Virus record (IMG/VR): IMGVR_UViG_2671181040_000014
DNA: 31,123 nucleotides
Source of the DNA: a virus
Lineage: Duplodnaviria; Heunggongvirae; Uroviricota; Caudoviricetes
Reading direction: 5' to 3' (one strand)
Under the pieces are notes generated by a model that was not told the DNA's origin, searched no databases, and saw only the letters and a list, made by a program, of their open reading frames with translations. Both the position numbers and the translations under genes were made by a program. Below, piece by piece: positions 1 through 24,243 of the stretch (positions within the stretch are counted from its first letter, which is position 1; each line of letters starts with the position of its first letter).

Positions 1-405
1 ATGGATCAGGTCGTTGTTTTTCAAAAGATGTTTGAGCAAGTGAGAAAAGAGCAAAACTTCTCCTGGTTTTATTCAGAATTAAAACATCACCGTATTGCAC
101 ATTACATTTATTATCTGGCTACGGATAACATCAGAATTATTACTCACGATGACACGGTTTTGTTATTAAGAGGAACCAGGAACCTGTTAAAAGTTAGTAC
201 GACCAAGAACCCTGCTAAAATAAAAGAGGCCGCATTGCTTCATATTTGCGGAAAATCTACATTTCGGGAATACTGTTCAACACTAGCAGGCGCGGGCGTT
301 TTCCGGTGGGTTACTGATGTTAATCATAACAAACGCAGTTACTACGCCATTGATAATACGCTTTTATATATTGAAGATGTAGAAAATAATAAACCATTAA
401 TCTAG
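1..405 (+). CDS. ycgX: small hypothetical protein of the chromosomal flank (YcgX-like)
   Basis: Complete 134-aa ORF starting at base 1 in AT-rich DNA. Its position beside an IraM-like ORF and an icd 3' fragment matches the icdC-iraM-ycgX neighbourhood of E. coli K-12 as I recall it. Identity is from memory, not a search. Confidence 0.45.
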   Translation: MDQVVVFQKMFEQVRKEQNFSWFYSELKHHRIAHYIYYLATDNIRIITHDDTVLLLRGTRNLLKVSTTKNPAKIKEAALLHICGKSTFREYCSTLAGAGVFRWVTDVNHNKRSYYAIDNTLLYIEDVENNKPLI

Positions 406-614
406 CTAAAGTTGGATGCTTAAGAAATGCTTCATAATTCAGTAAGGCATTAGCATAATGGGAATAAAAGTACAGAGACTATCCCTATGGATGATAAATA
501 CTGTCCTTTTATTGCTACCCATAAATAATCACCATGCCAATACTATCAAATTGATATTTGAAATGTGATCACTTGACTTTCTATACGTTATTTTATAACG
601 GTTAATATATTTAT

Positions 615-661
615 AAAAACAACGGGTGTGCCATACGCCCGTTTCAATACTTAACGCACAT
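615..661. repeat. ~47-bp hairpin-containing element (AACGGGTGT-loop-ACGCCCGTT), near-copy of 1477-1523
   Basis: Aligns with 1477-1523 with a few substitutions. Imperfect inverted repeat with one G-T wobble; a T-run follows on the minus strand. Confidence 0.5.
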
Positions 662-1100
662 GTGTTTTGGTTTAGTCATCATCCAGTTATATGTATTTTA
701 GCCAGGAACAGGTTAAACCTTTCCTATATAACTCAAAAATTGAAACCTTATTCTCATGTCATGCTTATATTCATTATTATCGTTATATAAAAAGGCAACC
801 ATAATGTTTAGCAAATTGGCACAAAGTAGCATAAAGGCTATGTTTTAATTACAGGATGTTCAGTCATTTGAATGTATAACATTATAGCTAAACAAATCTA
901 AAACGAAGTGAATAATTTATTGTTTTCACTAAATCTCATTTTGTTTAACATCCATTGAGATTCCTTGCTTTAAATTTTGTTTTATATAAGCAATCGTTTT
1001 AATTAATTTATTTTTTGAAGGGGTAATATACTCATATGCAAAATAAAGAAATGAACATCCAAATGAACTATATTAAATACCGTGGGATAAGACATAACAA

Positions 1101-1424
1101 ATGAAGTGGATAGTAATTGACACGATAATTCAACCTTCATGCGGCATATCTTTTTCAGCCATATGGGGTAATATGAAAATGATCATCTGGTATCAATCTA
1201 CTATATTTCTCCCTCCTGGCAGTATATTTACACCGGTTAAATCTGGAATTATCCTTAAAGATAAAGAATATCCTATTACTATTTATAACATCGCACCATT
1301 CAACAAGGATTTATGGAGTCTACTCAAAAGCAGTCAAGAGTGTCCTCCAGGAGAAAGCAAAATAACAAATAAATGTTTGCATAATAGTTGCATTATAAAA
1401 ATATGCCCATATGGGCTCAAGTAA
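1101..1424 (+). CDS. iraM: anti-adaptor IraM-like protein (RssB inhibitor family)
   Basis: 107-aa ORF (MKWIVIDT...). Length and position next to the icd 3' fragment match iraM (ycgW) of E. coli K-12 as recalled. Not verifiable here. Confidence 0.5.
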
Positions 1425-1476
1425 AGGGTTTTATATAAATATGCTCGATATGCTATTAATAATACCTACATAAATA

Positions 1477-1523
1477 AAACAACGGGCGTGTTATACGCCC
1501 GTTGCAATATTAAACACATGTAG
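1477..1523. terminator. hairpin element between the convergent iraM-like ORF and the icd fragment; probable shared terminator
   Basis: Perfect 9-bp stem AACGGGCGT / ACGCCCGTT with a 5-nt loop (1485-1507). On the minus strand it lies directly after the icd stop codon and is followed by a T-rich run. Confidence 0.5.
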
Positions 1524-1526
1524 TGA

Positions 1527-1691
1527 TTACATGTTCTTGATGATCGCATCACCAAATTCTGAACATTTCAGCAGTTTAGCGCCTTCCATCAGACGTTCGA
1601 AGTCATAGGTTACAGTCTTGGCGTTGATTGCGCCTTCCATACCTTTAACAATCAGGTCTGCGGCTTCAGTCCAGCCCATATGGCGTAACAT
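1527..1691 (-). pseudogene. icdC: 3' fragment of the isocitrate dehydrogenase gene (last 54 codons plus stop)
   Basis: Minus-strand translation [54 protein letters not shown] matches the Icd C-terminus as I recall it. Homology stops abruptly at 1691/1692. Phages integrating into icd leave such a fragment. Confidence 0.85.
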
Positions 1692-2509
1692 TAGATTTAG
1701 AAAATTATTATATCCAATTGAATTAAAACAATTTTATACTTAACGAACATCTAAACTTGTTTTTTTACCTTCACCATAACTCGCTGATTTTGTATAGTTT
1801 ACGTAGCGTTTTGATAACCACTTTATGGCAAAATGGAGGTTCGCTTGAAAACTTCTGTTCTTATCCAGAAATTAATGGAAATTGACAAAACTGTACTATT
1901 CGATGCGGACGTAGTGACCGGTGAGGAATGGTGGCCAACCCCGATTTCTCGTGTTTATCACAATCCGCCACATACTTATGTAGAATTTTAAACAGGTGAA
2001 CAATCTCAAAATGAATCTGACGAGCTAAGTGTTTATAGCGAATTACAAATTTGTGCACATCGAATGATGCAAATTAGAGATTTTGTGCAATCTAACGAGG
2101 GACTGAAACCTGAAAAAATTGTTTCGGAAATAAACATTCAAATTGAACGTATTAAAAAGTGATGGCTGAAGCAATTCTGAAACACTAATTCATATTCTAT
2201 GTTCTTCATACCAATGTGGATTTAACTCCCACCCACCCACCAACCCACCAACCATGATTGGGCGGCGCAAGAAACTAATATCAATTAAAACAGCAAGTTA
2301 TCAGTCTAAACAGAACACCAACGGGATGGAGGAGAGACAAAAAATATCCAATGAAACCGTAGCGCGTCAGCATTCAAAAGCGGGGTTTCTTATTTTTACT
2401 TCACCAGTAACAAATACACTGTATCATAACTACATAAAAATGATTGTTCTGACTCAGATGAATTTCTTACTCTTGTGGAATGTCACTTAATGTTATTTAT
2501 AGGTAAACA

Positions 2510-4399
2510 ATGAAATCCGAAACGCTAACCATCCAGCAAATTTTCCAAAATCAACGACAATATCGTGTTCCATTCTATCAACGTGCCTACGTATGGACGC
2601 AACGAAACCAATGGTCAGCTTTGTTGGAGGATATCTTCGAAAAAGCACAGAGCCGACTTTCGGGAACAAAACCAACCCCTCATTTCCTCGGCGCGGTGGT
2701 GCTGGAACCTCAACTCAAAAACAGCTTGTTAGGTGTAGATACCATACATATTATTGACGGCCAGCAACGTTTAACCACTCTTCAATATATTCTGGCATCC
2801 ATTCGATTATCATTGCGTGCTACAGGCCTTTCTGAACTGGAAGGGTTAGTATTGACTTGCTTGAAAAATACAAACGAAGCAACGATGAGAAATAAAAAGG
2901 TAGAATGCTTCAAACTGTGGCCAACTTTTCGAGATCAAACTCATTTTATTCAAAGTCTTAATGTTGATAATATTGACGATCTCCGTAATGTATTTTCTGA
3001 TAGCTTCACGCAACATGGTACGTTACGTAAACATTTCAACCACCCGCCGTCACTAGAGGCATTATGGTTTTTTACTGAAGCCTTTATAAAATGGATTAAA
3101 ATAGAAAACCACTCACCACAAGAAAATGCTGTAGCACTAATTGAGGCTGTCTTGACGGATCTGAAACTGGTAAGCATATTTCTCGAAGCTGAAGATGATG
3201 CCCAAATAATTTTTGAAACATTAAATGGGCGAGGAGCGGAACTTCATGCAACGGATCTTATTCGCAACTATATCTTTATGTGCGCTGAGCATGAAAATAT
3301 TAATGCTATTGAATTATATGAAAATGAGTGGAAGATCTTTGAAGATAAATACTGGTCGGAAAAGCAACGCCGTGGACGTATTAATAAACCACGCATGGAG
3401 TGGCTTGTACATGCGACATTGCAATCAGAAAGGCAGCGTGAAATTGATCTGTCTCGCCTTTACAATGAGTATCGTGATTATGTAAGTAAGGACTTGCCTT
3501 CACAACGAGCAGATCTGCAAGTAAAGCGCCTCAAACAATATGCATCACAATATAAAGAATTGGTTGGTGGTTTTGGCACAACCCCCATCTCACTCTTTGG
3601 ACATCGCATCGCAGCCTATGATGTGACGACACTCTATCCGCTTGCTTTGTTCATTTCGATAGCTAACATCGCCGATGATGAGAAAGCAGCCATGTATAAT
3701 GATCTTGTCTCCTACGTAGTACGAAGATCCGTATGTGGCCTGACGCCAAAGAATTACAACAATGTATTTATGAATGTATTGCGACACTTGTCTAAAACGG
3801 AAATTTCCAGTGTTGAGTTACGTAATATCCTCAATAGCTTAAATGGCGAAGCCTCACGTTGGCCTGGGGACTCAGAATTTCTCAACGCTTGCATCAATGC
3901 TCCACTTTATCCTGGCAGGCTCGACGCACCGAAAATGCGCTCAATGTTAACGGAACTTGAAAGAGAACTTTGTCGCCAAGTGAAGACAGAAAAGCCTGAT
4001 GTTCCAAATCTTTCTAATCTCGATATCGATCATCTTATGCCTCAAAGTTGGTATTCCTGTTGGCCTCTCGAAAATGGTCATATGGTGACAAATTCAGATG
4101 CTACGGTAATGAACCAAATTGTTCTGTCTGGAACCGATCTTACCCCTGAACAGCTACTGGTAAGGAAACGGCAACAAGCGATAGCTACGTTGGGAAATCT
4201 AACTTTGCTTAACCTTAGCGTAAACCGTTCCGTTCAGAATGCTGTATTTCTGAAAAAACGTGATGCTCTCATCGTCCACACCAATCTACGACTGAACATA
4301 CCACTTATACTTAAGGATAAATGGGATGAGAGTGAAATACAGGAGCGAGGTAAAAAGTTGGGGGAAATTGCATTGAAAGTATGGCCAAAATACGATTAA
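2510..4399 (+). CDS. DUF262 (ParB-like, DGQQR motif) / DUF1524 (His-Me finger) fusion protein; GmrSD-family type IV restriction endonuclease candidate
   Basis: 629-aa ORF. N-terminal YQRAYVW and IIDGQQRLTTL motifs typical of DUF262; C-terminal DIDHLMPQSW and GNLTLLNLSVNRS resemble the DUF1524 HNH-like nuclease. AT-rich, beside a truncated invertase, in the slot mcrA occupies in e14. Confidence 0.75.
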   Translation: MKSETLTIQQIFQNQRQYRVPFYQRAYVWTQRNQWSALLEDIFEKAQSRLSGTKPTPHFLGAVVLEPQLKNSLLGVDTIHIIDGQQRLTTLQYILASIRLSLRATGLSELEGLVLTCLKNTNEATMRNKKVECFKLWPTFRDQTHFIQSLNVDNIDDLRNVFSDSFTQHGTLRKHFNHPPSLEALWFFTEAFIKWIKIENHSPQENAVALIEAVLTDLKLVSIFLEAEDDAQIIFETLNGRGAELHATDLIRNYIFMCAEHENINAIELYENEWKIFEDKYWSEKQRRGRINKPRMEWLVHATLQSERQREIDLSRLYNEYRDYVSKDLPSQRADLQVKRLKQYASQYKELVGGFGTTPISLFGHRIAAYDVTTLYPLALFISIANIADDEKAAMYNDLVSYVVRRSVCGLTPKNYNNVFMNVLRHLSKTEISSVELRNILNSLNGEASRWPGDSEFLNACINAPLYPGRLDAPKMRSMLTELERELCRQVKTEKPDVPNLSNLDIDHLMPQSWYSCWPLENGHMVTNSDATVMNQIVLSGTDLTPEQLLVRKRQQAIATLGNLTLLNLSVNRSVQNAVFLKKRDALIVHTNLRLNIPLILKDKWDESEIQERGKKLGEIALKVWPKYD

Positions 4400-4421
4400 T
4401 GCAATTAATAAAATGATTATA

Positions 4422-4445
4422 GCGGCCTTACATTAGTAAGGCCGC
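4422..4445. terminator. 10-bp-stem hairpin (GCGGCCTTAC-ATTA-GTAAGGCCGC) between the convergent DUF262 gene and the invertase remnant
   Basis: Perfect inverted repeat 23 bp after the DUF262 stop. No clean T-run on the plus strand; a T-rich run follows on the minus strand. Confidence 0.4.
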
Positions 4446-4499
4446 AACTCACTATTAAATCCTTTAATTTGCATCAAGAACAGCACTGTCAGCCCTAGG

Positions 4500-4624
4500 C
4501 TCTCGGACTTTGTACCGCTTATCTTGTCTTCAAAAATCAGCTCGCATCCTGCACAGTTCAACGCATTACGTTGTAGATCGATTTTCTGGTCATTTGTTGA
4601 TACGCAAACATAGCCAATAAGCAT
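4500..4624 (-). pseudogene. pin: truncated serine invertase (Pin/Gin/Hin family), N-terminal ~41 codons only
   Basis: Minus-strand translation MLIGYVCVSTNDQKIDLQRNALNCAGCELIFEDKISGTKSE matches the conserved invertase N-terminus with the catalytic-serine motif YVRVST (here YVCVST). Similarity ends near 4500 where the AT-rich cargo begins. Confidence 0.8.
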
Positions 4625-4632
4625 GGTAGCTC

Positions 4633-4704
4633 CCTCTGACAAAAGCAGGAATGATGCCATTTTCTCGTTATTTCTGCATTTTCATAAACGTTGGTTTGGG
4701 AGAA
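4633..4704. repeat. inverted repeat arm (pin leader plus pix), reverse complement of 31052-31123
   Basis: Base-by-base comparison shows an exact reverse-complement match to the last 72 bases of the window. Confidence 0.9.
4679..4704. other. pix/hix/gix-like 26-bp recombination site (12-2-12; TTTTCATAAACG-TT-GGTTTGGGAGAA)
   Basis: Imperfect inverted half-sites of the TTNTNNAAAACC type around a central TT, directly upstream of the invertase remnant. Homology with the right-hand switch starts exactly at the central dinucleotide. Confidence 0.7.
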
Positions 4705-5040
4705 TTATCTCTGGCTGGCACTGCATCGGGTGTCATTGGTCTGAATGGGTATGTAACGATTCCGTTAATTATTTCAGGTTCCCGGAGAACACTGATTATT
4801 CAGTGGGGGCAGGCGAGATTTGGTGGGTCTGGTGGTGAAGATGCCGGATATCTTAATGATTTTCCTTTTGCCTTTCCGTCAGCATGTTATGGAATGATAG
4901 TTAGTCATGTGGGGCATACACCTTCAGGCGCAGGAATCCTGTCGGCTTCTGCAATTACATCAAATCAGTTCCGCGGTTTTTCAAGCATAGCGACTGCTGC
5001 AAATGCTGTATTAGGTCGTTATATCGCTATAGGGGGTTAA
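4693..5040 (+). pseudogene. tail-fibre variable C-terminal segment (Sv) without its constant N-terminal part
   Basis: Translation from LSLAGTASGVIG to the stop is identical to the C-terminus of the 29245-29883 tail fibre. Upstream codons come from the invertase leader, so the listed start at 4651 is an artefact of reading across the pix site. Confidence 0.65.
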
Positions 5041-5041
5041 T

Positions 5042-5479
5042 ATGTTTTATAGTCCATCATTAAACATTTTTGTGAATCCTGCGCTTAAGGATGATTACAT
5101 TAATGCAAATTCATGGCCAGATGATGCTCTGGCTGTCAGTGATGATGTTTATAATGAATTTGCAATCAATACGCCCCCATATGACAAAATTCGTGTTGCA
5201 GGAAAAAATGGATTACCCACATGGGCACTAATACCTCCACCATCGCATGAAGAACTTATTCAACAGGCAGAATCAGAAAGGCAATTATTGCTTAATCAGG
5301 CCAACGAATACATGAACAGTAAACAATGGCCCGGTAAAGCCGCTATTGGTCGTCTGAAAGACGAGGAACTGGCACTATATAATTTGTGGCTGGATTACCT
5401 GGACGCACTGGAACTGGTGGATACCTCCAGTGCTCCAGATATTGAATGGCCTACACCTCCGGTAACTCAGGCCAGCTAA
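5042..5479 (+). CDS. tfa: tail fibre assembly protein (Tfa family), duplicate of 29885-30322
   Basis: 145-aa ORF starting one base after the Sv stop; identical protein to 29885-30322. Confidence 0.75.
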   Translation: MFYSPSLNIFVNPALKDDYINANSWPDDALAVSDDVYNEFAINTPPYDKIRVAGKNGLPTWALIPPPSHEELIQQAESERQLLLNQANEYMNSKQWPGKAAIGRLKDEELALYNLWLDYLDALELVDTSSAPDIEWPTPPVTQAS

Positions 5480-5542
5480 TCTCAGGAGCCGTCGAAGTGT
5501 CGACGGCTTTTACTTCTTTTTTGTAGTCCATCCAGGCGGATA
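5451..5542 (-). pseudogene. 3' fragment of the alternative tail fibre assembly gene (tfa'), about 30 codons
   Basis: Minus-strand translation ends LSAWMDYKKEVKAVDTSTAPEISWPELPEV, identical to the C-terminus of the 30294-30689 ORF. Homology ends at 5542. Confidence 0.65.
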
Positions 5543-5724
5543 ACAGCGCGAACGATACAGCCGTACCGCGATTAACAACATCAAAAAATTCTGGTCGCTG
5601 ACAGCGAAAGGCTGCATGTTCGGCAAGAACATCACCAGTCCCGCAAATCCGCGCGAGACGCAGCCGCACTTTTTCGAATCCCGATTCCCTGAGCTGTTAA
5701 AGCTGCTCGATACCGTTCATTGAG

Positions 5725-6720
5725 GTGACCGTGAGAGCACTACTGACCCCTGAAATTGCCCCGCGTATGGGGATCGTATTGTTCAGACCAGGTTCAGAGC
5801 TGATGCCCCTGTTTATGCAGGGGCGTGTCCTGCTGGAGCCTGAGCCGGAGCATTATTCATCTTTCGCCAGTGGTGCCGTTCCCGCGGCATCACAACCGCT
5901 GGCGGATGATCCTGTCGTTCGGGCCGTGTTCCGTAATGAGGCAGTGATTCGTCGTGCTGGTGGGGTGGAATGTCTTGAAAGCTGGTTACTTCGTGAAAAA
6001 GGCTGCCAGTGGCCTCATTCCGACTGGCACAGCGAGAACATGACCACAATGCGACACGCGCCGGGCGCAATCCGTCTGTGCTGGCACTGCGATAACCAGT
6101 TGCGCGATCAGTTCACGGAACGGCTGGAATCAATGGCAACGGATAACTGTGCCCGCTGGGTATTGTCTGTTGTGCGTCGGGATCTCGGTTTTGATGATAG
6201 TCACGTTGTGACAATGCCGGAACTGTGCTGGTGGCTGGTTCGTAATGACCTGGCGGATGCCTTACCGGAAAGTGCAGCCCGTAAGGCACTGAGATTACCG
6301 AAGCCTGTTGTGCCGTCTGTCACCCGGGAAAGTGACCTTGTGCCTTCGGTTCCTGCCACCAGCATCATCCAGGATAAGGCGAAAAAGGTGCTGGCGCTGA
6401 AAGTGGATCCGGAGTCGCCGGAGTCTTTTATGTTACGCCCAAAACGTCGCCGCTGGGCTAATGAAAAGTACACGCGCTGGGTTAAGACACAGCCGTGTGC
6501 ATGTTGTGGAAAGCTTGCTGATGATCCCCACCACCTGATAGGCGACGGTCAGGGGGGAATGGGTACAAAAGCGCATGACCTCTTTGTGTTGCCTTTGTGC
6601 AGAAAGCATCACGACGATCTGCATGCGGATACCGTGGCATTTGAAGAAAAGTATGGCTCCCAGTTGGAGCTGATATTTCGTTTTATCGATCGTGCGCTGG
6701 CAATTGGCGTGCTGGCGTAA
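5725..6720 (+). CDS. DUF968-like phage protein (nin-region type, YdfU-like) with a C-terminal Cys/His cluster
   Basis: 331-aa ORF; C-terminal CACCGK...DPHHL...LCRKHHDDLH motif. GTG start at 5725 is uncertain (alternatives 5731 and 5767). Sits directly upstream of the Q-like gene, as ydfU does beside quuQ in the Qin prophage as I recall it. Confidence 0.5.
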   Translation: MTVRALLTPEIAPRMGIVLFRPGSELMPLFMQGRVLLEPEPEHYSSFASGAVPAASQPLADDPVVRAVFRNEAVIRRAGGVECLESWLLREKGCQWPHSDWHSENMTTMRHAPGAIRLCWHCDNQLRDQFTERLESMATDNCARWVLSVVRRDLGFDDSHVVTMPELCWWLVRNDLADALPESAARKALRLPKPVVPSVTRESDLVPSVPATSIIQDKAKKVLALKVDPESPESFMLRPKRRRWANEKYTRWVKTQPCACCGKLADDPHHLIGDGQGGMGTKAHDLFVLPLCRKHHDDLHADTVAFEEKYGSQLELIFRFIDRALAIGVLA

Positions 6721-6733
6721 GTGGAGAACGAGC

Positions 6734-7486
6734 ATGAACCTTGAAGCCTTACCAAAATATTACTCCCCAAAATCTCCAAAATTGAGCGATGACGCACCGG
6801 CGACAGGCTCAGGTGGTTTAACGATTACGGATGTGATGGCTGCGCAGGGGATGGTGCAGTCGAAAGCACCGCTTGGGTTTGCCTTATTCCTGGCAAAAGT
6901 TGGTGTTCAGGATCCTCAGTTTGCGATTGAAGGTCTGCTCAATTACGCGATGGCACTGGATAACCCGACATTGAACAAATTGAGTGAAGAAACCCGGTTA
7001 CAGATCATCCCTTACCTTGTGAATTTTGCCTTTGCTGATTATTCCAGGTCTGCGGCAAGTAAGGCTCGCTGTGAGCATTGTGCTGGTACTGGATTTCATA
7101 ATGTATTGCGCGAAGTGGTGAAACACTCCAGAAGCGGGGAATCTGTTATCAAGGAAGAGTGGGTGAAGGAACTATGTCAGCATTGCCATGGTAAGGGAGA
7201 AGTCAGCACCGCGTGCAGAGGGTGTAAGGGTAAAGGTATTGTCCTGGATGAAAAAAGAACCCGGCTTCATGGCACGCCTGTTTATAAGATTTGTGGGCGT
7301 TGCAGTGGAAACCGGTTTAGCCGTTTACCAACCACACTGGCGCGGCTTCATGTCCAGAAGCTGGTACCAGACCTGACGGATTATCAGTGGTACAAAGGAT
7401 ATGCAGATGTCATTGATAAACTGGTTACAAAGTGCTGGCAGGAGGAAGCTTACGCTGAAGCACAATTGAGAAGGGTGACGAGATAA
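6734..7486 (+). CDS. late-gene antitermination protein Q-like, with four CxxCxGxG zinc-finger repeats
   Basis: 250-aa ORF from the ATG at 6734 (GGAG 7 nt upstream). Contains CEHCAGTG, CQHCHGKG, CRGCKGKG and CGRCSGNR. Followed by a strong intrinsic terminator and then the lysis genes, the lambdoid Q-pR'-tR' layout. Confidence 0.5.
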   Translation: MNLEALPKYYSPKSPKLSDDAPATGSGGLTITDVMAAQGMVQSKAPLGFALFLAKVGVQDPQFAIEGLLNYAMALDNPTLNKLSEETRLQIIPYLVNFAFADYSRSAASKARCEHCAGTGFHNVLREVVKHSRSGESVIKEEWVKELCQHCHGKGEVSTACRGCKGKGIVLDEKRTRLHGTPVYKICGRCSGNRFSRLPTTLARLHVQKLVPDLTDYQWYKGYADVIDKLVTKCWQEEAYAEAQLRRVTR

Positions 7487-7593
7487 GCGATTTTCGCCGA
7501 AGATAACGACATAATACTTGTATTTCTCAAAAAATATGGATAAGATTTTCTCAACGATGGGGCTTGTGTATCTATCGTTGAACAATTTTTACG

Positions 7594-7617
7594 ACCTCGC
7601 TATTGCGAGGTTTTTTT
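7594..7617 (+). terminator. rho-independent terminator (tR'-like) downstream of the Q-like gene
   Basis: Stem ACCTCGC / GCGAGGT with loop TATT, followed by seven T residues (7611-7617) and a second T-run. Confidence 0.65.
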
Positions 7618-7655
7618 ATGGTTTTTTTCTATTCAATCTACATCAAAATCAATGT

Positions 7656-7664
7656 GTTATAATG
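7656..7664 (+). promoter_or_regulatory. candidate extended -10 promoter element (TGtTATAAT) upstream of the 7701 ORF
   Basis: Perfect TATAAT at 7659-7664 with TG at 7656-7657, about 36 nt upstream of the 7701 start. No convincing -35 hexamer. Confidence 0.4.
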
Positions 7665-7700
7665 TTTTCTGTAAAACAACATTAAAAACAGGAGAACATT

Positions 7701-7970
7701 ATGAAACTGACCTCTATCCATCTTGAAATACTACGTCGAGTGAATGAATTGCAGCCAAAGGATTCTAGAATTCAGGCTGCATCATTACCTCATCTCTCAG
7801 CAAAAGAGGTTAACTTTGCTATTTCAGATCTTGCTGATATAGGTTTTATCGATGTTATACGAAGCAAATCTGCCGAAGGTGGATTGATTGCTAATGAGAT
7901 AACGTCAAAAGGTTTTGCTTTTTTGAGTGAGATTGGCGCTGAAAAAAATTCATCGATGAGCACTCATTGA
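7701..7970 (+). CDS. small hypothetical protein (89 aa), possible winged-helix DNA-binding fold; first gene of an AT-rich moron
   Basis: Strong RBS (AGGAGAACATTATG). AT-rich codon usage unlike the flanking phage genes. Helix-rich pattern (LEILRRVNEL ... FAISDLADIGFID) only suggests a wHTH fold. Confidence 0.55.
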   Translation: MKLTSIHLEILRRVNELQPKDSRIQAASLPHLSAKEVNFAISDLADIGFIDVIRSKSAEGGLIANEITSKGFAFLSEIGAEKNSSMSTH

Positions 7971-7984
7971 TTTCTGCTTCAATC

Positions 7985-8002
7985 GGCTGCCAATTGGCAG
8001 CC
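7985..8002. promoter_or_regulatory. perfect 18-bp palindrome GGCTGCCAATTGGCAGCC (possible operator or hairpin)
   Basis: Exact dyad symmetry with no T-run after it, lying between the two moron genes. Confidence 0.45.
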
Positions 8003-8167
8003 TAAACTGTAAAGTGAATTTAAAATCGCCTACAATTGATGCTTAAATTTTGTTCTGTATCATCTGCAGGTTTAGGGATATCACAGTAGCTTTCTGACAA
8101 GAAGAGTTCTTTTCTTCTACCAATGAAGTGGTTATGTTAACCTGCGCTAAATCGAGACTGGTGCGGA

Positions 8168-8974
8168 GTGGAATCGAAAGTGTCATATTTTTACAGAAGC
8201 AAGAATATTTCAGGTGTTTCTATAAATGAAGATAGCTTGATTAGCTTAAGCACGGCAATTGTCGAACGCTGCGTTAAAATGAATGAGCAAGCTCAAAAGG
8301 AAAGTAGGGAAGTTTGTGCTCAATGTGTTTTTTTTATTTTGTTCGATGGTAAGGGGTATAAAGTTGATTCTATCGGTGAGCTTGTGAAATACTTTAGACA
8401 GGCCACTAGGATTGATCAAATAATTTTTACTATTGAAACTTATCAAAGTCGACAGTCTAACAGGATGAATGGATCTTGGATGGAGCTACGAATTGATGAG
8501 AGGAATTCAAATAGCAGCACAATGATTGTAGCATCGGAAGATAATGAGTGGGTTGACTCGTTATGGATTACGATTCAGGATTTACTTAACAAGTGCAAAA
8601 ATAAATTTAGATTTTTTAGAACAGCTTGGACTATGTTAAGTATCCAGATTTCAGGTGTGACAGTTGGCTTTTTGCTTAGCTTATGGACAGCCTCAAAACT
8701 GGCGCCAAAACTATCAATCGATGGTGCATTTGCTTTATCATTTATTTGTATCTTTATTTTGTTTTCGAACTTATGGAGCTTTGCTATTCCATTAATAATT
8801 AAGCTTATCGACTTTTTGTTTCCTAGTGTTAAGTTTGTTATTAATGGTAAAAATTACTTTCACTGGAGTGTCCAGGCTATAATTGGAGCGATTGCCAGTG
8901 CGGTTATATTGTATTTTATTAGCTCCATGTTGCTTTTTGCATTAGAAATGTTAAATAGCATCATTAAGAAATAG
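8168..8974 (+). CDS. hypothetical membrane protein: soluble N-terminal domain (~150 aa) plus three C-terminal hydrophobic helices; second gene of the moron
   Basis: 268-aa ORF in AT-rich DNA. Hydrophobic segments around residues 155-175, 187-215 and 235-262. Start codon uncertain (GTG at 8168 has a weak RBS; first in-frame ATG is at 8279). Confidence 0.5.
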   Translation: MESKVSYFYRSKNISGVSINEDSLISLSTAIVERCVKMNEQAQKESREVCAQCVFFILFDGKGYKVDSIGELVKYFRQATRIDQIIFTIETYQSRQSNRMNGSWMELRIDERNSNSSTMIVASEDNEWVDSLWITIQDLLNKCKNKFRFFRTAWTMLSIQISGVTVGFLLSLWTASKLAPKLSIDGAFALSFICIFILFSNLWSFAIPLIIKLIDFLFPSVKFVINGKNYFHWSVQAIIGAIASAVILYFISSMLLFALEMLNSIIKK

Positions 8975-9082
8975 TTAATGAATTAGTTATAATTACATCA
9001 ATTCTATGGCTGCCAAATGGTGGCCTTTTTTATTCCTCTCATTTCTATTTCTGAGAGGACTCACTGCAATAAGAGGTGGCTA

Positions 9083-9469
9083 ATGTCCGATCCGATTTCC
9101 GGCACAGGGTTAGCTGGTGGAGCCCTAACGGGCGCTAGTATTTATGGACTGCTGACCGGAACTGATTACGGCGTTGTATTTGGCGCATTTGCAGGGGCTG
9201 TATTCTACATAGCAACAGCAGCAGATCTGAGTGCATCGCGCCGACTAGCATATTTTATCGTGTCATATATTGCCGGGATCCTTTGCTCTGGGTTGGTTGG
9301 CTCCAAGCTGGCGAACTTGACCGGATACAGTGATAAACCTCTGGATGCTATTGGTGCCGTAATCGTCTCTGCTTTAGCCGTTAAAATCCTGACGTTCCTG
9401 AATAATCAGGATATCGGCTCGCTGGTGGCGCTCATAACGCGCCGGGGAGGTTCAGGTGGAGCTAAATGA
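9083..9469 (+). CDS. putative holin (multi-pass small membrane protein)
   Basis: ATG at 9083 with RBS AAGAGGTGG. 128 aa with four hydrophobic glycine/alanine-rich segments. First gene of the lysis cassette, upstream of the endolysin. Confidence 0.5.
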   Translation: MSDPISGTGLAGGALTGASIYGLLTGTDYGVVFGAFAGAVFYIATAADLSASRRLAYFIVSYIAGILCSGLVGSKLANLTGYSDKPLDAIGAVIVSALAVKILTFLNNQDIGSLVALITRRGGSGGAK

Positions 9470-9737
9470 CCCGACAGCAACTATAAATGCGCTGTTATGT
9501 GCTTGTGTTGTTATTACTCTGATGTTTTATCGTCGTGGCGACTCCAGACATCGACCGTGGATATCTCGCTTAGCGTGGCTGCTTACGGTCATTTATAGCG
9601 CCGTACCGCTGGCGTATCTGTGCGGTATCTACCCTTATTCATCGTGGGCCACTATCGTGGCCAACATTATTTTCCTGTCCGTGCTGGTCGCCGTCAGAGG
9701 CAATGTGGCACGTCTGGTTGACCATCTGAGGCACTAA
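9456..9737 (+). CDS. putative second holin or antiholin-like membrane protein
   Basis: 93-aa ORF from a GTG with GGGGAGG upstream; about three hydrophobic helices. Its stop overlaps the endolysin start (TAATG). Confidence 0.45.
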   Translation: MELNDPTATINALLCACVVITLMFYRRGDSRHRPWISRLAWLLTVIYSAVPLAYLCGIYPYSSWATIVANIIFLSVLVAVRGNVARLVDHLRH

Positions 9738-10351
9738 TGAACCAATCACAATTTCAGCAGGCGGCTGGTATCAGCGCCGATGTTTCTGCACGCTGGTTTC
9801 CGCACATTGATGCGGCAATGAAAGAGTTTGGTATTACAGCAGTTAATGATCAGGCCATGTTCATTGCACAAGTCGGGCATGAGTCTGCAGGATTTACTTC
9901 GCTGGCAGAGAGTTTTAACTACTCGGTTGAAGGGCTGAAGAAAACCTTTGGTAAGCGTCTGACGCCGTACCAGTGCGAAATGCTGGGGCGTGTCGATGGT
10001 AAACAGGTCGCTCACCAGCCGCAAATAGCCAATCTGGTTTACGGTGACCGCATGGGGAATAACAGCCAGGGTGACGGCTGGAAATATCGCGGTCGTGGCC
10101 TGCTTCAAATTACTGGCCGTGAGAACTACACCAAATGTGGTGCGGCGCTGAAACTTGACCTTGTCAATACACCAGAATTGCTAACGCAGGAGCGACATGC
10201 GGCCCGTTCGGCGGCGTGGTACTTCACGTTACGCGGTTGCTTGATGTATTCGGGTGACGTGGAACGTGTAACGCAGATTATTAACGGCGGACAGAATGGC
10301 ATTAAAGACCGCCGTGAACGTTACGCCAAAGCAAAAGCCGCACTGGTATGA
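9737..10351 (+). CDS. endolysin, glycoside hydrolase family 19 (chitinase-like lysozyme)
   Basis: 204 aa; motifs QVGHESAGF and YRGRGLLQITGRENY match GH19 signature regions as I recall them. Sits between the holin-like genes and the spanins. Confidence 0.8.
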   Translation: MNQSQFQQAAGISADVSARWFPHIDAAMKEFGITAVNDQAMFIAQVGHESAGFTSLAESFNYSVEGLKKTFGKRLTPYQCEMLGRVDGKQVAHQPQIANLVYGDRMGNNSQGDGWKYRGRGLLQITGRENYTKCGAALKLDLVNTPELLTQERHAARSAAWYFTLRGCLMYSGDVERVTQIINGGQNGIKDRRERYAKAKAALV

Positions 10352-10358
10352 GGTCACT

Positions 10359-10628
10359 ATGGGACTTGAAATGATTATCGGCCTGGTTGTTGCTGTGCTG
10401 GCTGCAATTGCAGGTGCTTTTGGTCTGGGTAAATCACGCGGTACAAGTATCGCAGAAACAAAAGCGGACCAGCAACGCACTGAAGAACGTGCAGCTGCTA
10501 CTGAAGCCGTTGCAGAACGTAGGGTAGAGACAACAAAAGGAGCCTGGGATGTACAGCAGACTGTTAATCATCTACCTGATGACGATGTTGACCGTGAGTT
10601 GCGCGAAAACTTTACCCGCAAAACCTGA
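10359..10628 (+). CDS. i-spanin (Rz-like): N-terminal transmembrane helix plus charged coiled-coil region
   Basis: ATG at 10359 with GAGGT RBS. MGLEMIIGLVVAVLAAIAGAFGL membrane anchor, then a Glu/Arg/Ala-rich helical region. Directly follows the endolysin. Confidence 0.6.
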   Translation: MGLEMIIGLVVAVLAAIAGAFGLGKSRGTSIAETKADQQRTEERAAATEAVAERRVETTKGAWDVQQTVNHLPDDDVDRELRENFTRKT

Positions 10629-10767
10629 AGTAACGGACACGGCCTGTGACTGGGTAAGAATCATCTACCTCACAGGTCAGGACATTGAAGTGCTGGATAA
10701 GCTTACGAAGCGGGATATTCTGGCACATAACAAAGCAGTACAGCGCAACTGTATTAGCCAGTTATGA
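10549..10767 (+). CDS. o-spanin (Rz1-like) lipoprotein candidate, overlapping the i-spanin gene out of frame
   Basis: 72-aa ORF with RBS AAAAGGAG. Signal-like N-terminus with a lipobox-like LTVSC. Starts inside the Rz-like gene in another frame and runs past its end. Confidence 0.55.
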   Translation: MYSRLLIIYLMTMLTVSCAKTLPAKPEVTDTACDWVRIIYLTGQDIEVLDKLTKRDILAHNKAVQRNCISQL

Positions 10768-10779
10768 GGCAAACGAGAT

Positions 10780-10804
10780 TGCGGGCAATTATCGCCCGCA
10801 ATAA
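10780..10804. terminator. bidirectional hairpin terminator between the lysis cassette and the antisense moron
   Basis: Perfect 9-bp stem ATTGCGGGC / GCCCGCAAT with a 7-nt loop, between the convergent ORFs ending at 10767 (+) and 10810 (-). Confidence 0.55.
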
Positions 10805-10809
10805 AGTTA

Positions 10810-11199
10810 TCAATTATCTCCTTTAAAGGAGTCGTATTCACCCCAATCAGCAAACCCAATCGGTCTTTTAGGGGTCTCTAAGCATAAGCGTTTTTTTCGG
10901 ATTAGCAGGACATTTATTTGAGATACATGCTGAACAAGTTCTACAGGACTGCCATCCTCCAGAGTACCAATGAAAGAAATTAATGATGGATTCCAGTAGC
11001 TTATGTCTGTGAAATGAAATTCAATGTTTTTACCAAAGCTAGCTAGTTGTCCTCCTACCTCATACTCTTCTTCAAGTTCACGGTGAAAATCATTTATCCA
11101 GCATATAAGGCGTCTATGAAATTCATTTGCAAGATTGTAGTCCTTTGGAACATATGGCTGTGAGTATTTGAGGAAATCATTCATGTAGTTATTTGTCAT
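10810..11199 (-). CDS. hypothetical protein encoded antisense to the late operon (moron), function unknown
   Basis: AT-rich minus-strand ORF. Preferred start is the third ATG (11199), which has AAGGA 7 nt upstream; the longest ORF reaches 11226. No signal peptide or recognisable motif. Confidence 0.5.
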   Translation of the reverse strand: MTNNYMNDFLKYSQPYVPKDYNLANEFHRRLICWINDFHRELEEEYEVGGQLASFGKNIEFHFTDISYWNPSLISFIGTLEDGSPVELVQHVSQINVLLIRKKRLCLETPKRPIGFADWGEYDSFKGDN

Positions 11200-11297
11200 C
11201 AGGGCGTCCTTTACGAGCATAACCATTGTTACTTAACGGATTGAAACGCTATTAAATAACATGGTTTCTATCATAATTTCTATCCGGAGTTTTCCAT

Positions 11298-11648
11298 ATG
11301 CCGCCACGAATCCCAAAAGCCTGCCGTGTTCGCGGCTGCCGTTCTACCACTACAGATCCGTCAGGCTACTGCGAAAATCATAAAGGTGAGGGCTGGAAAT
11401 CCTACAAGCCAGGTCAATCACGGCAGCAGCGCGGATATGGAACAAAGTGGGAAGTCATCCGGGAGCGGATACTAAAGCGCGACAAAGGGTTATGTCAGAA
11501 CCATCTTCGGCAGGGAGTTGTGAAGCAAGCGTCCTGCGTGGACCACCTCAAGGCGAAGGCTCACGGCGGCACTGATGAAGACAGCAACCTTGAGAGTCTG
11601 TGCTGGTCGTGTCACGCAGTGAAGACCGCGCGTGAGCGGTTCAGGTGA
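11298..11648 (+). CDS. HNH endonuclease (phage packaging-associated)
   Basis: 116 aa with Cys-rich zinc-finger-like N-terminus and an HNH-type core (CQNHLRQG...CVDHLKAKAHGG...NLESLCWSCH). Directly upstream of the terminase genes. Confidence 0.8.
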   Translation: MPPRIPKACRVRGCRSTTTDPSGYCENHKGEGWKSYKPGQSRQQRGYGTKWEVIRERILKRDKGLCQNHLRQGVVKQASCVDHLKAKAHGGTDEDSNLESLCWSCHAVKTARERFR

Positions 11649-11774
11649 GAATTGATGTCATCATCAGCCAGGGGAGGGGGAGGTCGAATCTTTGCAACCG
11701 CGCGCCTTCCGGACTGCCCGCCCCATCGTTTTTTTATACCCGCGAAAAATGAAATTTAACCAGGAGTGCCGCAT

Positions 11775-12269
11775 ATGGCTGGAACGGCGGGGCGTTCCGG
11801 GCGTCGCCCCAAGCCAACGGCGCGCAAGGCGCTGGCCGGAAACCCCGGCAAGCGAGCCCTGAATAAAGATGAACCTGTTTTTACGCCCATCAAAGGTGTT
11901 GAGCCACCGGAGTGGTTCGCTGAAGAAGATCTCCCTCTCGCCACGATCATGTGGCAACTGACAACTAAAGAACTCTGCGGTCAGGGCCTGCTGTGCGTGA
12001 CTGACCTCGCAGTGCTTGAGCGGTGGTGTGTGGCCTATGAGTTCTGGCGACGTGCCGTGAAAAATATTGCCAGACAGGGCAACACCATCACCGGTGCAAT
12101 GGGCGGTATGGTCAAAAATCCGGAGCTGACCGCCAAAAAAGAACAGGAGTCCGAGATGAGCAGTACGGGGGCAATGCTCGGACTCGACCCCAGCAGCCGC
12201 CAGCGTCTGATTGGCCTGGCGGGGAAGAAGAAAGCCACTAACCCGTTTCTGAAAATCATCGAATCATGA
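11775..12269 (+). CDS. terminase small subunit (P27-family type)
   Basis: ATG at 11775 with CAGGAG RBS. Basic N-terminus ([13 protein letters not shown]). Its stop overlaps the TerL start (ATGA). Confidence 0.75.
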
Positions 12270-13999
12270 GCCGGAAATCTTACCCCAACGTAAATGCTGC
12301 CAATCAGTATGCCCGTGATGTCGTGCGCGGAAAGATTGTGGCCTGCCAGTTTGTGATTCAGGCCTGCCAGCGGCATCTTGATGACCTGATGGCGGAAAAA
12401 AGTAAGTCGTTTCGTTACCGCTTCGACAAGGACCTGGCTGAACGGGCCGCTAAATTTATTCAGCTGTTGCCGCACACCAAGGGTGAGTGGGCATTTAAGA
12501 GGATGCCCATCACGCTGGAGCTGTGGCAGCTCTTTGTGATCTGCTGCGCGTTTGGCTGGGTCAATAAAGGCTCCCGGCTGCGCCGCTTCCGTGAGGTGTA
12601 TACCGAAATCCCCCGTAAGAACGGCAAATCGGCAATCTCTGCCGGTGTCGCCCTGTATTGTTTTGCCTGTGATAACGAGTTCGGCGCGGAAGTGTATTCC
12701 GGTGCCACGACGGAGAAACAGGCATGGGAAGTCTTTCGTCCGGCAAGACTGATGTGTAAACGCACACCCATGCTGACGGAAGCGTTCGGGATTGAGGTTA
12801 ACGCCTCAAACATGAACCGTCCGGAGGATGGTGCGCGTTTTGAACCGCTGATCGGTAACCCCGGTGATGGTTCATCACCCCACTGTGCGGTGGTGGATGA
12901 ATATCACGAGCACGCCACCGATGCGCTTTACACCACGATGCTTACCGGGATGGGGGCGCGACGTCAGCCACTGATGTGGGCCATTACTACTGCCGGGTAC
13001 AACATTGAGGGGCCGTGCTACGACAAGCGGCGGGAAGTTATCGAGATGCTCAACGGGTCGGTACCCAACGATGAACTGTTCGGGATCATCTATACCGTTG
13101 ACGAAGGCGATGACTGGACCGACCCGCAGGTGCTGGAAAAAGCCAATCCAAATATTGGCGTGTCGGTTTATCGCGAATTTTTGTTAAGTCAGCAGCAGCG
13201 TGCGAAAAATAACGCCCGTCTGGCAAACGTCTTTAAAACAAAACACCTCAATATCTGGGTGTCGGCGCGTTCGGCGTATTTCAATCTGGTGAGCTGGCAG
13301 AGCTGCGAGGATAAATCACTGACCCTTGAGCAGTTCGAGGGGCAGCCGTGCATTCTGGCCTTTGACCTGGCGCGTAAGCTGGATATGAACAGTATGGCGC
13401 GACTTTATACCCGCGAGATTGACGGTAAAACGCATTACTACAGTGTGGCCCCGCGTTTCTGGGTACCGTATGACACGGTGTACAGCGTCGAGAAAAATGA
13501 AGATCGACGGACAGCCGAACGCTTTCAGAAATGGGTGGAAATGGGCGTTCTGACCGTTACCGATGGTGCGGAGGTGGATTATCGCTACATCCTCGAGGAG
13601 GCCAAAGCGGCGAACAAAATCAGCCCGGTCAGTGAGTCACCCATCGACCCCTTCGGGGCGACCGGGTTGTCACATGACCTTGCTGATGAAGACCTGAACC
13701 CCATCACTATCATTCAGAACTACACCAACATGTCCGACCCGATGAAAGAGCTGGAAGCGGCAATTGAATCGGGGCGCTTTCATCATGATGGCAATCCCAT
13801 CATGACCTGGTGTATCGGCAACGTGGTCGGCAAAACCATTCCGGGTAACGATGATGTGGTGAAGCCCGTCAAAGAGCAGGCGGAAAACAAAATCGATGGT
13901 GCAGTTGCGCTGATTATGGCGGTTGGCAGAGCCATGCTGTACGAGAAAGAAGACACGCTGTCTGACCACATTGAGTCCTATGGGATCCGCTCGCTTTAA
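12266..13999 (+). CDS. terminase large subunit
   Basis: 577 aa; Walker A-like [11 protein letters not shown]; acidic nuclease-type C-terminal half. Sits between TerS and the portal. Confidence 0.9.
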
Positions 14000-14010
14000 C
14001 TGAGGTAATT

Positions 14011-14193
14011 ATGATCATGCTGATTCTCGCGCCTCTGGTGGGCGTGCTGGGGGCGCTTTTGCTGGCGTATGGTGCCTGGCTGATTTATCCCCCGGCGGGG
14101 TTTGTTGTTGCCGGGGCGTTGTGCCTGTTCTGGTCGTGGCTGGTGGCGCGATATCTCGACCGTACACAGTCGTCTGTCGGCGGAGGTAAATAG
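14011..14193 (+). CDS. small hydrophobic protein (60 aa, two predicted helices)
   Basis: ATG at 14011 with GAGGT RBS; fills the gap between TerL and the portal exactly. Confidence 0.4.
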
Positions 14194-15434
14194 TGTTCTT
14201 TTCGGGATTATTTCAACGAAAAAGTGACGCACCGGTGACCACGCCAGCAGAGCTGGCGGATGCTATCGGGTTGTCCTACGACACCTATACCGGAAAGCAG
14301 ATCAGCAGCCAGCGGGCCATGCGACTGACGGCGGTTTTTTCCTGTGTCAGGGTGCTGGCGGAGTCGGTCGGGATGTTGCCCTGCAACCTGTATCACCTGA
14401 ACGGCAGCCTGAAGCAGAGAGCCACTGGCGAACGTCTGCATAAGCTGATCTCCACGCATCCCAATGGCTATATGACGCCGCAGGAGTTCTGGGAGCTGGT
14501 GGTCACCTGTCTGTGTCTGCGGGGAAACTTTTACGCCTACAAAGTGAAAGCATTTGGCGAAGTGGCTGAACTGCTGCCCGTCGATCCCGGCTGTGTGGTA
14601 CCGAAGCTTAACAGTAGCTGGGAGCCGGTCTATCAGGTCACATTCCCGGATGGCTCCACGGATGTACTGAGCCAGGAGGATATCTGGCATGTGCGCACGC
14701 TGACGCTGGACGGACTGGTGGGGCTGAATCCCATCGCCTATGCCCGCGAGGCAATATCGCTGGCGGCAGCGACCGAAGAGCACGGGGCCAGACTGTTCAG
14801 CAATGGCGCGGTGACGTCGGGTGTGTTGCGTACAGAGCAGACGCTGTCAGATCAGGCTTATGAGCGCCTGAAGAAAGATTTTGAGGAGCGTCACACCGGG
14901 CTTGGCAATGCTCACCGCCCGATGATCCTTGAGATGGGGCTGGACTGGAAGTCGATGGCGCTGAACGCCGAGGACAGCCAGTTCCTGGAAACCCGCAAGT
15001 TTCAGCTTGAAGAAATCTGTCGTCTGTTCCGGGTGCCGTTGCACATGGTGCAGAACACCGATCGCGCCACCTTCAACAATATCGAAGAGCTGGGGCTGGG
15101 ATTTATCAACTATTCACTGGTGCCGTATCTGACCCGCATCGAACAGCGGATCAACACCGGACTGGTACGAAAAAGTAAGCAGGGCGTTTATTACGCCAAA
15201 TTTAACGCCGGGGCGTTACTGCGCGGGGATATGAAGTCCCGTTTTGAAGCCTACGCCACCGGGATCAACTGGGGAATTTACTCTCCCAATGACTGCCGCG
15301 ACCTGGAAGATATGAATCCGCGTCCCGGTGGTGATGTCTATCTCACACCGATGAACATGACCACGAAGCCCTCCGATGGCAGTAAAGCCGGTAAGCAGAA
15401 GGATAACGCCAATGCAGACGAAACAACGTCTTGA
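14193..15434 (+). CDS. portal protein (HK97-family type)
   Basis: 413-aa ORF with a GTG start after GGAGGT; position after TerL and before the prohead protease; sequence character typical of HK97-type portals. Confidence 0.85.
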   Translation: MFFSGLFQRKSDAPVTTPAELADAIGLSYDTYTGKQISSQRAMRLTAVFSCVRVLAESVGMLPCNLYHLNGSLKQRATGERLHKLISTHPNGYMTPQEFWELVVTCLCLRGNFYAYKVKAFGEVAELLPVDPGCVVPKLNSSWEPVYQVTFPDGSTDVLSQEDIWHVRTLTLDGLVGLNPIAYAREAISLAAATEEHGARLFSNGAVTSGVLRTEQTLSDQAYERLKKDFEERHTGLGNAHRPMILEMGLDWKSMALNAEDSQFLETRKFQLEEICRLFRVPLHMVQNTDRATFNNIEELGLGFINYSLVPYLTRIEQRINTGLVRKSKQGVYYAKFNAGALLRGDMKSRFEAYATGINWGIYSPNDCRDLEDMNPRPGGDVYLTPMNMTTKPSDGSKAGKQKDNANADETTS

Positions 15435-16062
15435 TGTACCGCTGAGTCTGAAATCTGTCAGTGACTCCGGTGAGTTTGAAGGGTATGGCTCCGTCTTTGG
15501 TGTAAAGGACAGCCACGATGATGTGGTGATGTCCGGGGCATTTGCTGCTTCCCTGCGGGCGTGGAGTGACAGAAAAGCGTTACCTGCGCTGCTCTGGCAG
15601 CACCGCATGGATGAACCCATCGGTGTTTACACCGAAATGAAGGAAGACGATGTCGGGCTTTACGTCAGGGGACGGTTGCTTATTGATGATGATCCCCTCG
15701 CAAAACGCGCACATGCACACATGAAGGCCGGTTCGTTAACCGGCCTTTCTATTGGGTACGTCCTGAAAGACTGGGAATATGACCGGAGCAAAGAAGCCTT
15801 TCTGCTGAAAGAAATCGACCTCTGGGAAGTCAGCCTGGTGACGTTCCCGTCTAACGACGAGGCGCGGATCAGCGACGTCAAGAACGCACAGGCCCGCGGG
15901 GAAATCCCCGAACAGAAAAAAATCGAAAGAGTCCTGCGTGATGTCGGACTCTCCCGTACCCAGGCCAAAGCATTCATGGCCGGGGGCTATAGCGCACTGT
16001 CCCTGCGCGACGCTGAGGATGTGGGCTCTGCACTGAATGCACTGAAAAATCTGAACTTCTAA
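15412..16062 (+). CDS. prohead maturation protease (HK97-type)
   Basis: ORF between portal and major capsid. Preferred start is the ATG at 15412 (AAGGA 8 nt upstream); the longest ORF begins at 15376. Confidence 0.8.
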   Translation: MQTKQRLDVPLSLKSVSDSGEFEGYGSVFGVKDSHDDVVMSGAFAASLRAWSDRKALPALLWQHRMDEPIGVYTEMKEDDVGLYVRGRLLIDDDPLAKRAHAHMKAGSLTGLSIGYVLKDWEYDRSKEAFLLKEIDLWEVSLVTFPSNDEARISDVKNAQARGEIPEQKKIERVLRDVGLSRTQAKAFMAGGYSALSLRDAEDVGSALNALKNLNF

Positions 16063-16076
16063 TCAGGAGAAATACG

Positions 16077-17282
16077 ATGGCGGTTGATATTAAAGATGTC
16101 GAACAGGTCGCGCAGGAGCTGCAGCAGAAGTTTGACGACTTCAAAGCAAAGAACGACAAGCGCGTGGATGCGATTGAGCAGGAAAAAGGCAAGCTTGCCG
16201 GGCAGGTGGAAACCCTGAACGGGAAACTCAGCGAGCTGGAAAATCTCAAAAGCGACCTTGAAAAAGAGCTGCTTGAGCTGAAACGTCCGGCTGGTGGAGC
16301 GCAAAATAAACTGACCACCGAGCATAAAGAAGCGTTTGTGGGCTTCCTGCGTAAAGGCCGTGAAGATGGTCTGCGCGATCTGGAGCGCAAGGCATTACAG
16401 GTGGGCACCGATGAAGACGGCGGCTATGCCGTGCCGGAAGCGCTGGATCGCAACATTCTGACCTTGCTGAAAGATGAAGTGGTGATGCGTCAGGAAGCCA
16501 CGGTGATCACCATTGGTGGTTCCGACTACAAAAAACTGGTGAATCTGGGCGGCACGGCTTCCGGATGGGTTGGCGAGACTGACGCGCGCTCCCAGACTGC
16601 CACCTCAAAACTGGGCCTGATTGAACCTTTCATGGGGGAAATCTACGGTAACCCGCAGGCCACCCAGAAAATGCTGGATGATGCCTTTTTCAACGTGGAA
16701 GCATGGATCAACAGCGAGCTGGCAACCGAATTTGCCGAACAGGAAGAAATTGCCTTTACCTCAGGCGATGGCACCAAGAAGCCGAAAGGGTTCCTGGCGT
16801 ATGAATCCACTGATGAAACCGATAAGGTCCGGGCGTTCGGCAAACTTCAGCATATTGTATCCGGCGAAGCGACTGCGGTGACCGCAGACGCCATTATCAA
16901 ACTGATTTACACGCTGCGTAAGGCACACCGCACTGGCGCGAAGTTCATGATGAACAACAACAGCCTGTTTGCCATTCGTCTGTTGAAAGACAACGAGGGT
17001 AACTATCTGTGGCGTCCGGGGCTGGAACTGGGGCAGCCTTCTTCTCTGCTGGGGTACGGTATTGCTGAAAACGAACAGATGCCGGATATTGCTGCGGATG
17101 CGAAAGCCATCGCATTTGGTAACTTCAAACGGGGTTACACCATCGTTGACCGTATCGGCACCCGCATTCTGCGTGACCCGTACACCAATAAACCGTTTGT
17201 CGGTTTTTATACCACCAAGCGCACCGGCGGAATGCTGGTCGATTCGCAGGCCATCAAACTGCTGAAGATTGCAGAGAAGTAA
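16077..17282 (+). CDS. major capsid protein (HK97 fold)
   Basis: 401 aa with AGGAG RBS. N-terminal coiled-coil delta-like region (EQVAQELQQKFDDFKAKNDKR...) followed by a capsid-type domain. Confidence 0.85.
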   Translation: MAVDIKDVEQVAQELQQKFDDFKAKNDKRVDAIEQEKGKLAGQVETLNGKLSELENLKSDLEKELLELKRPAGGAQNKLTTEHKEAFVGFLRKGREDGLRDLERKALQVGTDEDGGYAVPEALDRNILTLLKDEVVMRQEATVITIGGSDYKKLVNLGGTASGWVGETDARSQTATSKLGLIEPFMGEIYGNPQATQKMLDDAFFNVEAWINSELATEFAEQEEIAFTSGDGTKKPKGFLAYESTDETDKVRAFGKLQHIVSGEATAVTADAIIKLIYTLRKAHRTGAKFMMNNNSLFAIRLLKDNEGNYLWRPGLELGQPSSLLGYGIAENEQMPDIAADAKAIAFGNFKRGYTIVDRIGTRILRDPYTNKPFVGFYTTKRTGGMLVDSQAIKLLKIAEK

Positions 17283-17331
17283 TCGCTCATGGGCGCGGTT
17301 CCGCGCCCCCTGTTCTGAAGGGTGAAGAATC

Positions 17332-19302: not shown

Positions 19303-19310
19303 GGATCCTC

Positions 19311-24227: not shown

Positions 24228-24243
24228 AATTTTCGGAGTATAT

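Follow-up and report, generated by a model that had tools for sequence, protein, structure and literature searches.

The invertible tail-fibre switches of the Din family (Mu G/Gin, P1 C/Cin, e14 P/Pin and Salmonella Hin) are bounded by 26-bp inverted crossover sites with an AAACC-NN-GGTTT core. The sites enclose a pair of convergent cassettes, each made up of a variable fibre end and a tfa gene; the constant part of the fibre gene lies beyond the sites, and both orientations occur naturally. Cross-complementation among Din-family invertases is a known property. The e14 element and the Shigella phage SfII-like myoviruses integrate at icd and leave a duplicated icd 3′ fragment, carry restriction-type cargo and an invertase with an invertible fibre segment at the attR end, and combine a Mu-like baseplate with an HK97-like packaging module. 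A third class of described object is also relevant here, the single-N joins of draft assemblies made with Velvet, SSPACE and GapFiller. The Sanger pipeline runs Velvet, with k set at 66-90% of read length, before SSPACE and GapFiller (Page et al. 2016; PMC5320598). These last two are greedy tools, so that false joins are possible, and their joins begin as gaps of N (Page et al. 2016; PMC5320598); a GapFiller gap closes only when both extensions overlap (Boetzer & Pirovano 2012; PMC3446322).

We analysed a stretch of 31,123 nt (the window), equivalent to positions 544200-575322 of CYFW01000002.1, a record of 575,324 bp from the draft E. coli assembly GCA_001283465.1. Position 1 falls exactly on the ATG of ycgX. 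The record ends at window position 31125, 2 nt beyond the window (locus L027), and the right window boundary is thus a contig end and not a biological one. The window contains a prophage of the e14/SfII-like group, integrated at icd and carrying a Din-type invertible fibre segment; all of the group and switch features listed above recur in it, and in its sister genomes int and xis adjoin icd. SfII and its relatives matched the KilA-N/DUF968 region at about 97.7%. The prophage differs from e14 in its cargo, a DUF262/GmrSD-like gene at the position where e14 carries mcrA, in the reduction of its invertase to a 63-aa remnant, and in that the sister genomes, unlike e14, carry an apparently complete prophage. 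The truncation of the adjoining invertase also sets its switch apart from the other Din switches.

The left part of the window (1-5542) was one collinear piece with 99.98-100% identity to E. coli 19AR0254 and 22-245; between the window and 19AR0254, two substitutions were observed, both non-synonymous. The chromosomal flank and attR occupy 1-1691, as read from the RefSeq annotation of a 100%-identical stretch in 19AR0254, and include ycgX (1-405, plus strand), ymgL, ymgK, iraM (1101-1424, plus) and icd′, the duplicated icd 3′ fragment (1527-1691, minus), annotated in RefSeq as a partial isocitrate dehydrogenase. Window 1526-1691 shared 91% identity with the 3′ terminus of the intact icd gene found at the other end of the prophage. 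The cargo gene (2510-4399, plus; 629 aa) matched Pfam GmrSD_N and GmrSD_C. This type IV restriction-like gene, lying between icd′ and pin′, is present as an allele (L362) private to the isolate: GCA_001283465.1 and a Logan assembly made from run ERR175727 were the sole sources with an exact match to the protein, and the allele served to identify the source record. The cargo seems to have displaced the 3′ portion of the invertase gene. What is left of the latter, pin′ (4433-4624, minus; 63 aa), was recognized from RefSeq, from a weak Pfam Resolvase hit and from its translation, in which likeness to invertases is confined to the N-terminal ~45 residues (MLIGYVCVSTNDQ...); RefSeq names it 'recombinase family protein, incomplete, missing C-terminus'.

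Next to pin′ lies a crossover site (4679-4704; TTTTCATAAACG TT GGTTTGGGAGAA), and homology to genomes carrying the switch in its second state (state B) breaks at 4704. The following invertible segment (4691-5542, plus), in the other state (state A), keeps its collinearity with 19AR0254 and 22-245 as far as 5542 and is the first copy of an 852-bp repeat. It comprises the variable fibre end Sv1 (ORF 4654-5040), tfa1 (5042-5479) and, from the minus-strand gene tfa2, the final 30 codons (5451-5542).

To the right of 5543, the window opens with the 3′-terminal 59 codons (5544-5723, plus) of a KilA-N gene for a 265-aa protein; their translation is the C-terminus of the KilA-N protein of 19AR0254. 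A late-regulation module follows (5731-7486, plus), identified by Pfam matches to DUF968 and Antiterm on locus L023 and by RefSeq annotation; it encodes a DUF968 protein of 329 aa and a Q-type antiterminator of 250 aa (about 6734-7486). The prophage body (7701-29241, plus) was annotated from a 99.99%-identical stretch of 19AR0254 and from Pfam matches on loci L023 and L027. Its early part carries two hypothetical genes, holins, a GH19 endolysin, an HNH endonuclease and the small and large terminase genes; its later part carries portal, protease, capsid and head-tail genes, the sheath, tube and tape measure genes of a contractile tail, the Mu-like baseplate and YmfQ. At the right end is a complete tail-fibre switch in state B (29245-31051), 100% collinear, in reverse, with E. 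coli 22-250 and supported by Pfam matches to Gp53-like_C and Caudo_TAP. The fibre gene, constant part plus Sv1, occupies 29245-29883 (plus) and contains a crossover site (29522-29547), at which the second copy of the repeat begins (29534-30385). Then come the second copy of tfa1 (29885-30322, plus), tfa2 (30294-30689, minus), the unexpressed Sv2 cassette (ORF 30698-31105, minus) and, at 31052-31123 (minus), an inverted crossover site (31052-31077) with the pin′ leader.

Homology to every related genome was lost at 5542/5543. The first-pass annotation had placed an abrupt junction at this point, where a tfa fragment gives way to plus-strand late genes, and the comparison bore it out, the genes to the right being the KilA-N end, DUF968 and Q. 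The sequence common to both sides at the join amounts to at most 1-2 nt. The source record has "N" at this base (record position 549742), where the window text shows "A": locus L023 of CYFW01000002.1, which has the same adjacency of tfa1 and DUF968 as the window, reads ...ggcggataNcagcgcg... against ...ggcggataAcagcgcg... in the window. Window 5543 was the sole mismatch between the record (locus L023, position 13034) and window 1-14399, and no further position of this kind was found in 1-14399 or 15569-31123. The "A" is a substituted ambiguity code, and the join is therefore a one-N scaffold gap between two contigs and not sequenced DNA. Because the source has N at 5543, the real edges of the contigs fall at 5542 and 5544. 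Contig X runs up to 5542, and contig Y runs from 5544 to the end of the record (25,582 nt). BLAST matches to the right part started at 5544 in some cases and at 5542 in others, the latter because two A's agree by chance at the N.

The order of the two contigs was compared with that in related genomes. Window 5542-12376 and 10214-29547 matched the same prophage as the left part on the opposite strand, in agreement with the earlier suggestion that the body (5544-31123) is inverted relative to its attR end. The normal order, as the proposed comparison with close relatives established, is that of the complete genome 22-250, in which window 1-4704 corresponds to record positions 431214-435917 (plus) and, read backwards, window 31123-26000 to 435846-440969 and window 12000-5542 to 454969-461427. 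Collinearity closes without an indel: 435846 + (31123 - 5544) = 461425. Contig Y, reversed and laid onto a 74-nt overlap with X, thus reproduces the prophage of 22-250 without insertion or deletion. The corrected order is attR, icd′, DUF262, pin′, switch, tail, head, terminase, lysis, Q, DUF968, KilA-N, with the body on the minus strand, which is the orientation required by the attR end. In 19AR0254, the sequence beyond the breakpoint continues through KilA-N, RusA, replication genes, cI/cro-like genes, xisE and intE to icd. The report of no integrase, excisionase, repressor or replication genes therefore holds for the window alone; in 19AR0254 such genes lie just past KilA-N. The integrase allele (P0001) had exact matches in 644 contigs.

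No phage record and not one of the 5,426 complete E. coli genomes spans the junction, and junction words of 33 to 43 nt were absent from viral, genome and metagenome contig collections. There was likewise no record anywhere of the chimeric 72-aa ORF that spans the junction (5451-5669, minus). The exact tfa1 protein occurred in ten distinct genomic contexts, all ten of which were state A or state B.

Two duplications frame the misplaced contig. The 852-bp repeat noticed in the first-pass annotation is exact (4691-5542 equals 29534-30385, with 0 mismatches); it starts at the crossover site and ends precisely at the break. The second invertase leader at the window end was also correctly recognized: window 31052-31123 is the exact reverse complement of 4633-4704, and with the two remaining bases of the record the terminal overlap reaches 74 nt, the exact reverse complement of 4631-4704. 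The overlap stops at 4704/4705, the point at which the two states of the switch diverge. By itself, the 74-nt overlap is no proof that Y adjoins this particular pin′, as related prophages with a similar invertase leader would share site and leader. Taken with an N at the join, an adjacency absent elsewhere and an alternative placement, backed by the overlap, that equals the known normal arrangement, it leads us to conclude with high confidence that the junction is a scaffolding artefact of a short-read draft assembly and not a genome structure. What the window holds is two contigs of one ordinary e14/SfII-like prophage at icd, joined in the wrong orientation. The likeness to single-N joins in Velvet/SSPACE/GapFiller drafts is close: one ambiguous base exactly at the break, two sides without common sequence, a record end that overlaps an internal branch point by 74 nt, and single-copy DNA doubled to the left and right of the join. 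The difference is that here the gap was masked, the window having an 'A' for the 'N'. A misjoin at the 852-bp repeat had been among the original suggestions, and the part of it that stands is an artefact tied to the duplicated invertible segment; the contig ends abut, and do not join inside the repeat. We accordingly rejected a misjoin within the repeat, given that the join lies at the outer edge of the repeat and that tfa2 and KilA-N are without shared sequence. A fold-back or palindromic chimera was also rejected, as its two arms share no meeting point.

The 1-2 nt common to the two sides would be in keeping with an illegitimate join, and the scaffolder must presumably have had read-pair support for placing Y after X in the given orientation. 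Both points would suit a real rearrangement, in which illegitimate recombination between tfa2 and KilA-N inverted the 25.6-kb body, the order of the record being right and only its join left unsequenced. We consider such an event very unlikely. An inversion cannot double Sv1-tfa1 (852 bp) and the site with the pin′ leader (74 nt), each of which is present twice at 100% identity; it would also put Sv2 and a truncated tfa2 behind the constant fibre part, a place at which the window shows a complete switch and then the pin′ leader. Moreover, the join itself is an N, and the junction occurs in no other genome or contig searched.

Two related elements lying side by side had also been proposed: a decayed attR remnant (1-5542) beside an SfII/e14-like prophage in opposite orientation, or an inverted partial duplication, with the N hiding sequence between them. 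Several related prophages are common in E. coli genomes, KilA-N and pin-like segments were found at 2-3 places in some sister genomes, and the 74-nt leader could belong to a second element too. The stretches that are doubled in the window were, however, single-copy in closely related complete genomes: the remainder of tfa2 occurred at one place per sister genome, the tail end at one place in 22-250, and the tail and switch region was single-copy. Both halves of the window were 99.98-100% identical to the single icd-site prophage of the sister genomes and sum to exactly one copy of it, bar 852 + 74 nt. The two 852-bp copies are identical, and the end of the contig lies exactly 74 nt beyond the branch point of the switch, as expected if it re-enters the same unique pin′ flank. 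We therefore regard two adjacent elements as highly improbable. Hardly any probability, too, attaches to the specific form in which the scaffold order is correct and an inverted partial duplication of the prophage at icd really exists in part or all of the population, with the attR end and the switch present twice, in opposite states, around an inverted 25.6-kb body; template switching, or an illegitimate exchange of tfa2 with KilA-N, would have produced it. Two related placements of 5542 were tried and dropped. There was no support for it as the edge of a second tfa2-like copy, as the remainder of tfa2 is single-copy in all sister genomes, nor as a natural mosaic boundary of tfa2 variants, as divergence in ten tfa1 loci begins elsewhere (e.g. 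5523, 5990).

Rearrangement by the switch itself was the remaining proposal, a Din-family invertase having joined a switch site to a second switch copy or pseudo-site and so flipped the whole body. The switch is active in nature, with both states seen among genomes, between the sister strains 22-245 and 22-250, and within GCA_001283465.1. The break at 5542-5544 is nevertheless 838 nt from the nearest crossover site, and crossover cores were found in the window only at 4686, 29529 and 31059, with none in the KilA-N remnant; an invertase pseudo-site at the break was rejected, there being no core at that point. Site-specific inversion, furthermore, does not double DNA, and the resident invertase gene is a 63-aa remnant. 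The probability that remains for an invertase-mediated event is almost nil, and a homologous exchange is not supported either, with essentially no homology at the join. Jointly, the three rivals (a real inversion, two elements and an invertase-mediated flip) retain only a small share of the probability.

How the artefact arose can be sketched from the states of the switch. In contig X (state A), Sv1-tfa1 is attached to the pin′ side; in contig Y (state B), Sv1-tfa1 is attached to the constant part of the fibre gene, and the pin′ side to Sv2. Because both joints are continuous sequence and the pin′ flank is single-copy in relatives, the sequenced culture was most likely a mixture of both switch states. 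This mixture would have misled the scaffolder. Read pairs from state A would connect Sv1-tfa1 with the pin′ side, oriented as in Y, and such links would set the orientation X(+) to Y(+). Some read-pair links are needed for X and Y to be joined at all, and we infer that the mixed states supplied them. Gap filling may then have extended X through state-A reads as far as 5542 and, never meeting Y, left the residual N. An end overlap of 74 nt would fit a de Bruijn assembler run with k = 75 (k-1 = 74), and the style of the assembly is consistent with a Velvet + SSPACE + GapFiller pipeline; a search of papers for the run accession ERR175727 returned nothing. The independent Logan assembly of the same run breaks off inside pin′, at window 4532, without running through. 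The start of Y lies in KilA-N, part of a lambdoid module that is often multi-copy and tends to break short-read contigs; the N-terminal part of KilA-N was present in 1-3 copies in the sister genomes. As Y starts inside such a contig-breaking module, the absent integration, immunity and replication genes would be expected on another contig of the same assembly.

The case carries a caution for the reading of draft assemblies. An ambiguous base silently turned into 'A' made a scaffold gap mimic a clean, homology-free recombination junction, and any N in windows prepared likewise would be equally hidden. When draft assemblies are scanned, Ns should be retained or flagged, and scaffold termini that repeat internal sequence should be treated with suspicion.

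The biological residue is an orphan switch that flips without an invertase of its own, implying service in trans. Inverted crossover sites flank the two cassettes, Sv1/tfa1 and Sv2/tfa2 (29522-29547 and 31052-31077, with the pin′-side copy at 4679-4704), and no intact serine invertase gene was found beside the switch, only the 63-aa 5′ remnant. With both states observed, the tail-fibre switch evidently still flips despite the stump of its own invertase; since the resident gene is truncated, a trans-acting invertase from elsewhere would be implied. Two findings point tentatively to a second pin-like gene: the Logan contig ends at 4532, inside pin′, and some sister genomes carry pin-like segments at 2-3 places. 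Such a gene would fit the cross-complementation known among Din-family invertases.

Three further observations concern sequence to either side of the junction. Many public short-read contigs, from isolates and metagenomes, start at the window-equivalent positions 5614-5616, at the 3′ end of KilA-N upstream of DUF968, a pattern that came from a look-up of a 35-aa KilA-C ORF (loci L013-L022). The downstream contexts of these contigs include several different lambdoid and Stx-like phages, and the KilA-N 3′ end/DUF968 region is a widely shared mosaic module. Between Q and the holins, the two hypothetical genes at 7701-8974 (plus) encode products of 89 aa and 268 aa, the second with predicted membrane segments; no Pfam matches are on record for either, and the position of the pair is typical of morons. 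Finally, where the convergent genes tfa1 and tfa2 overlap, a hairpin with a perfect 8-bp stem (5488-5507; GCCGTCGA AGTG TCGACGGC) is followed by a T-rich run; it may serve as a bidirectional terminator and is unconnected to the junction.
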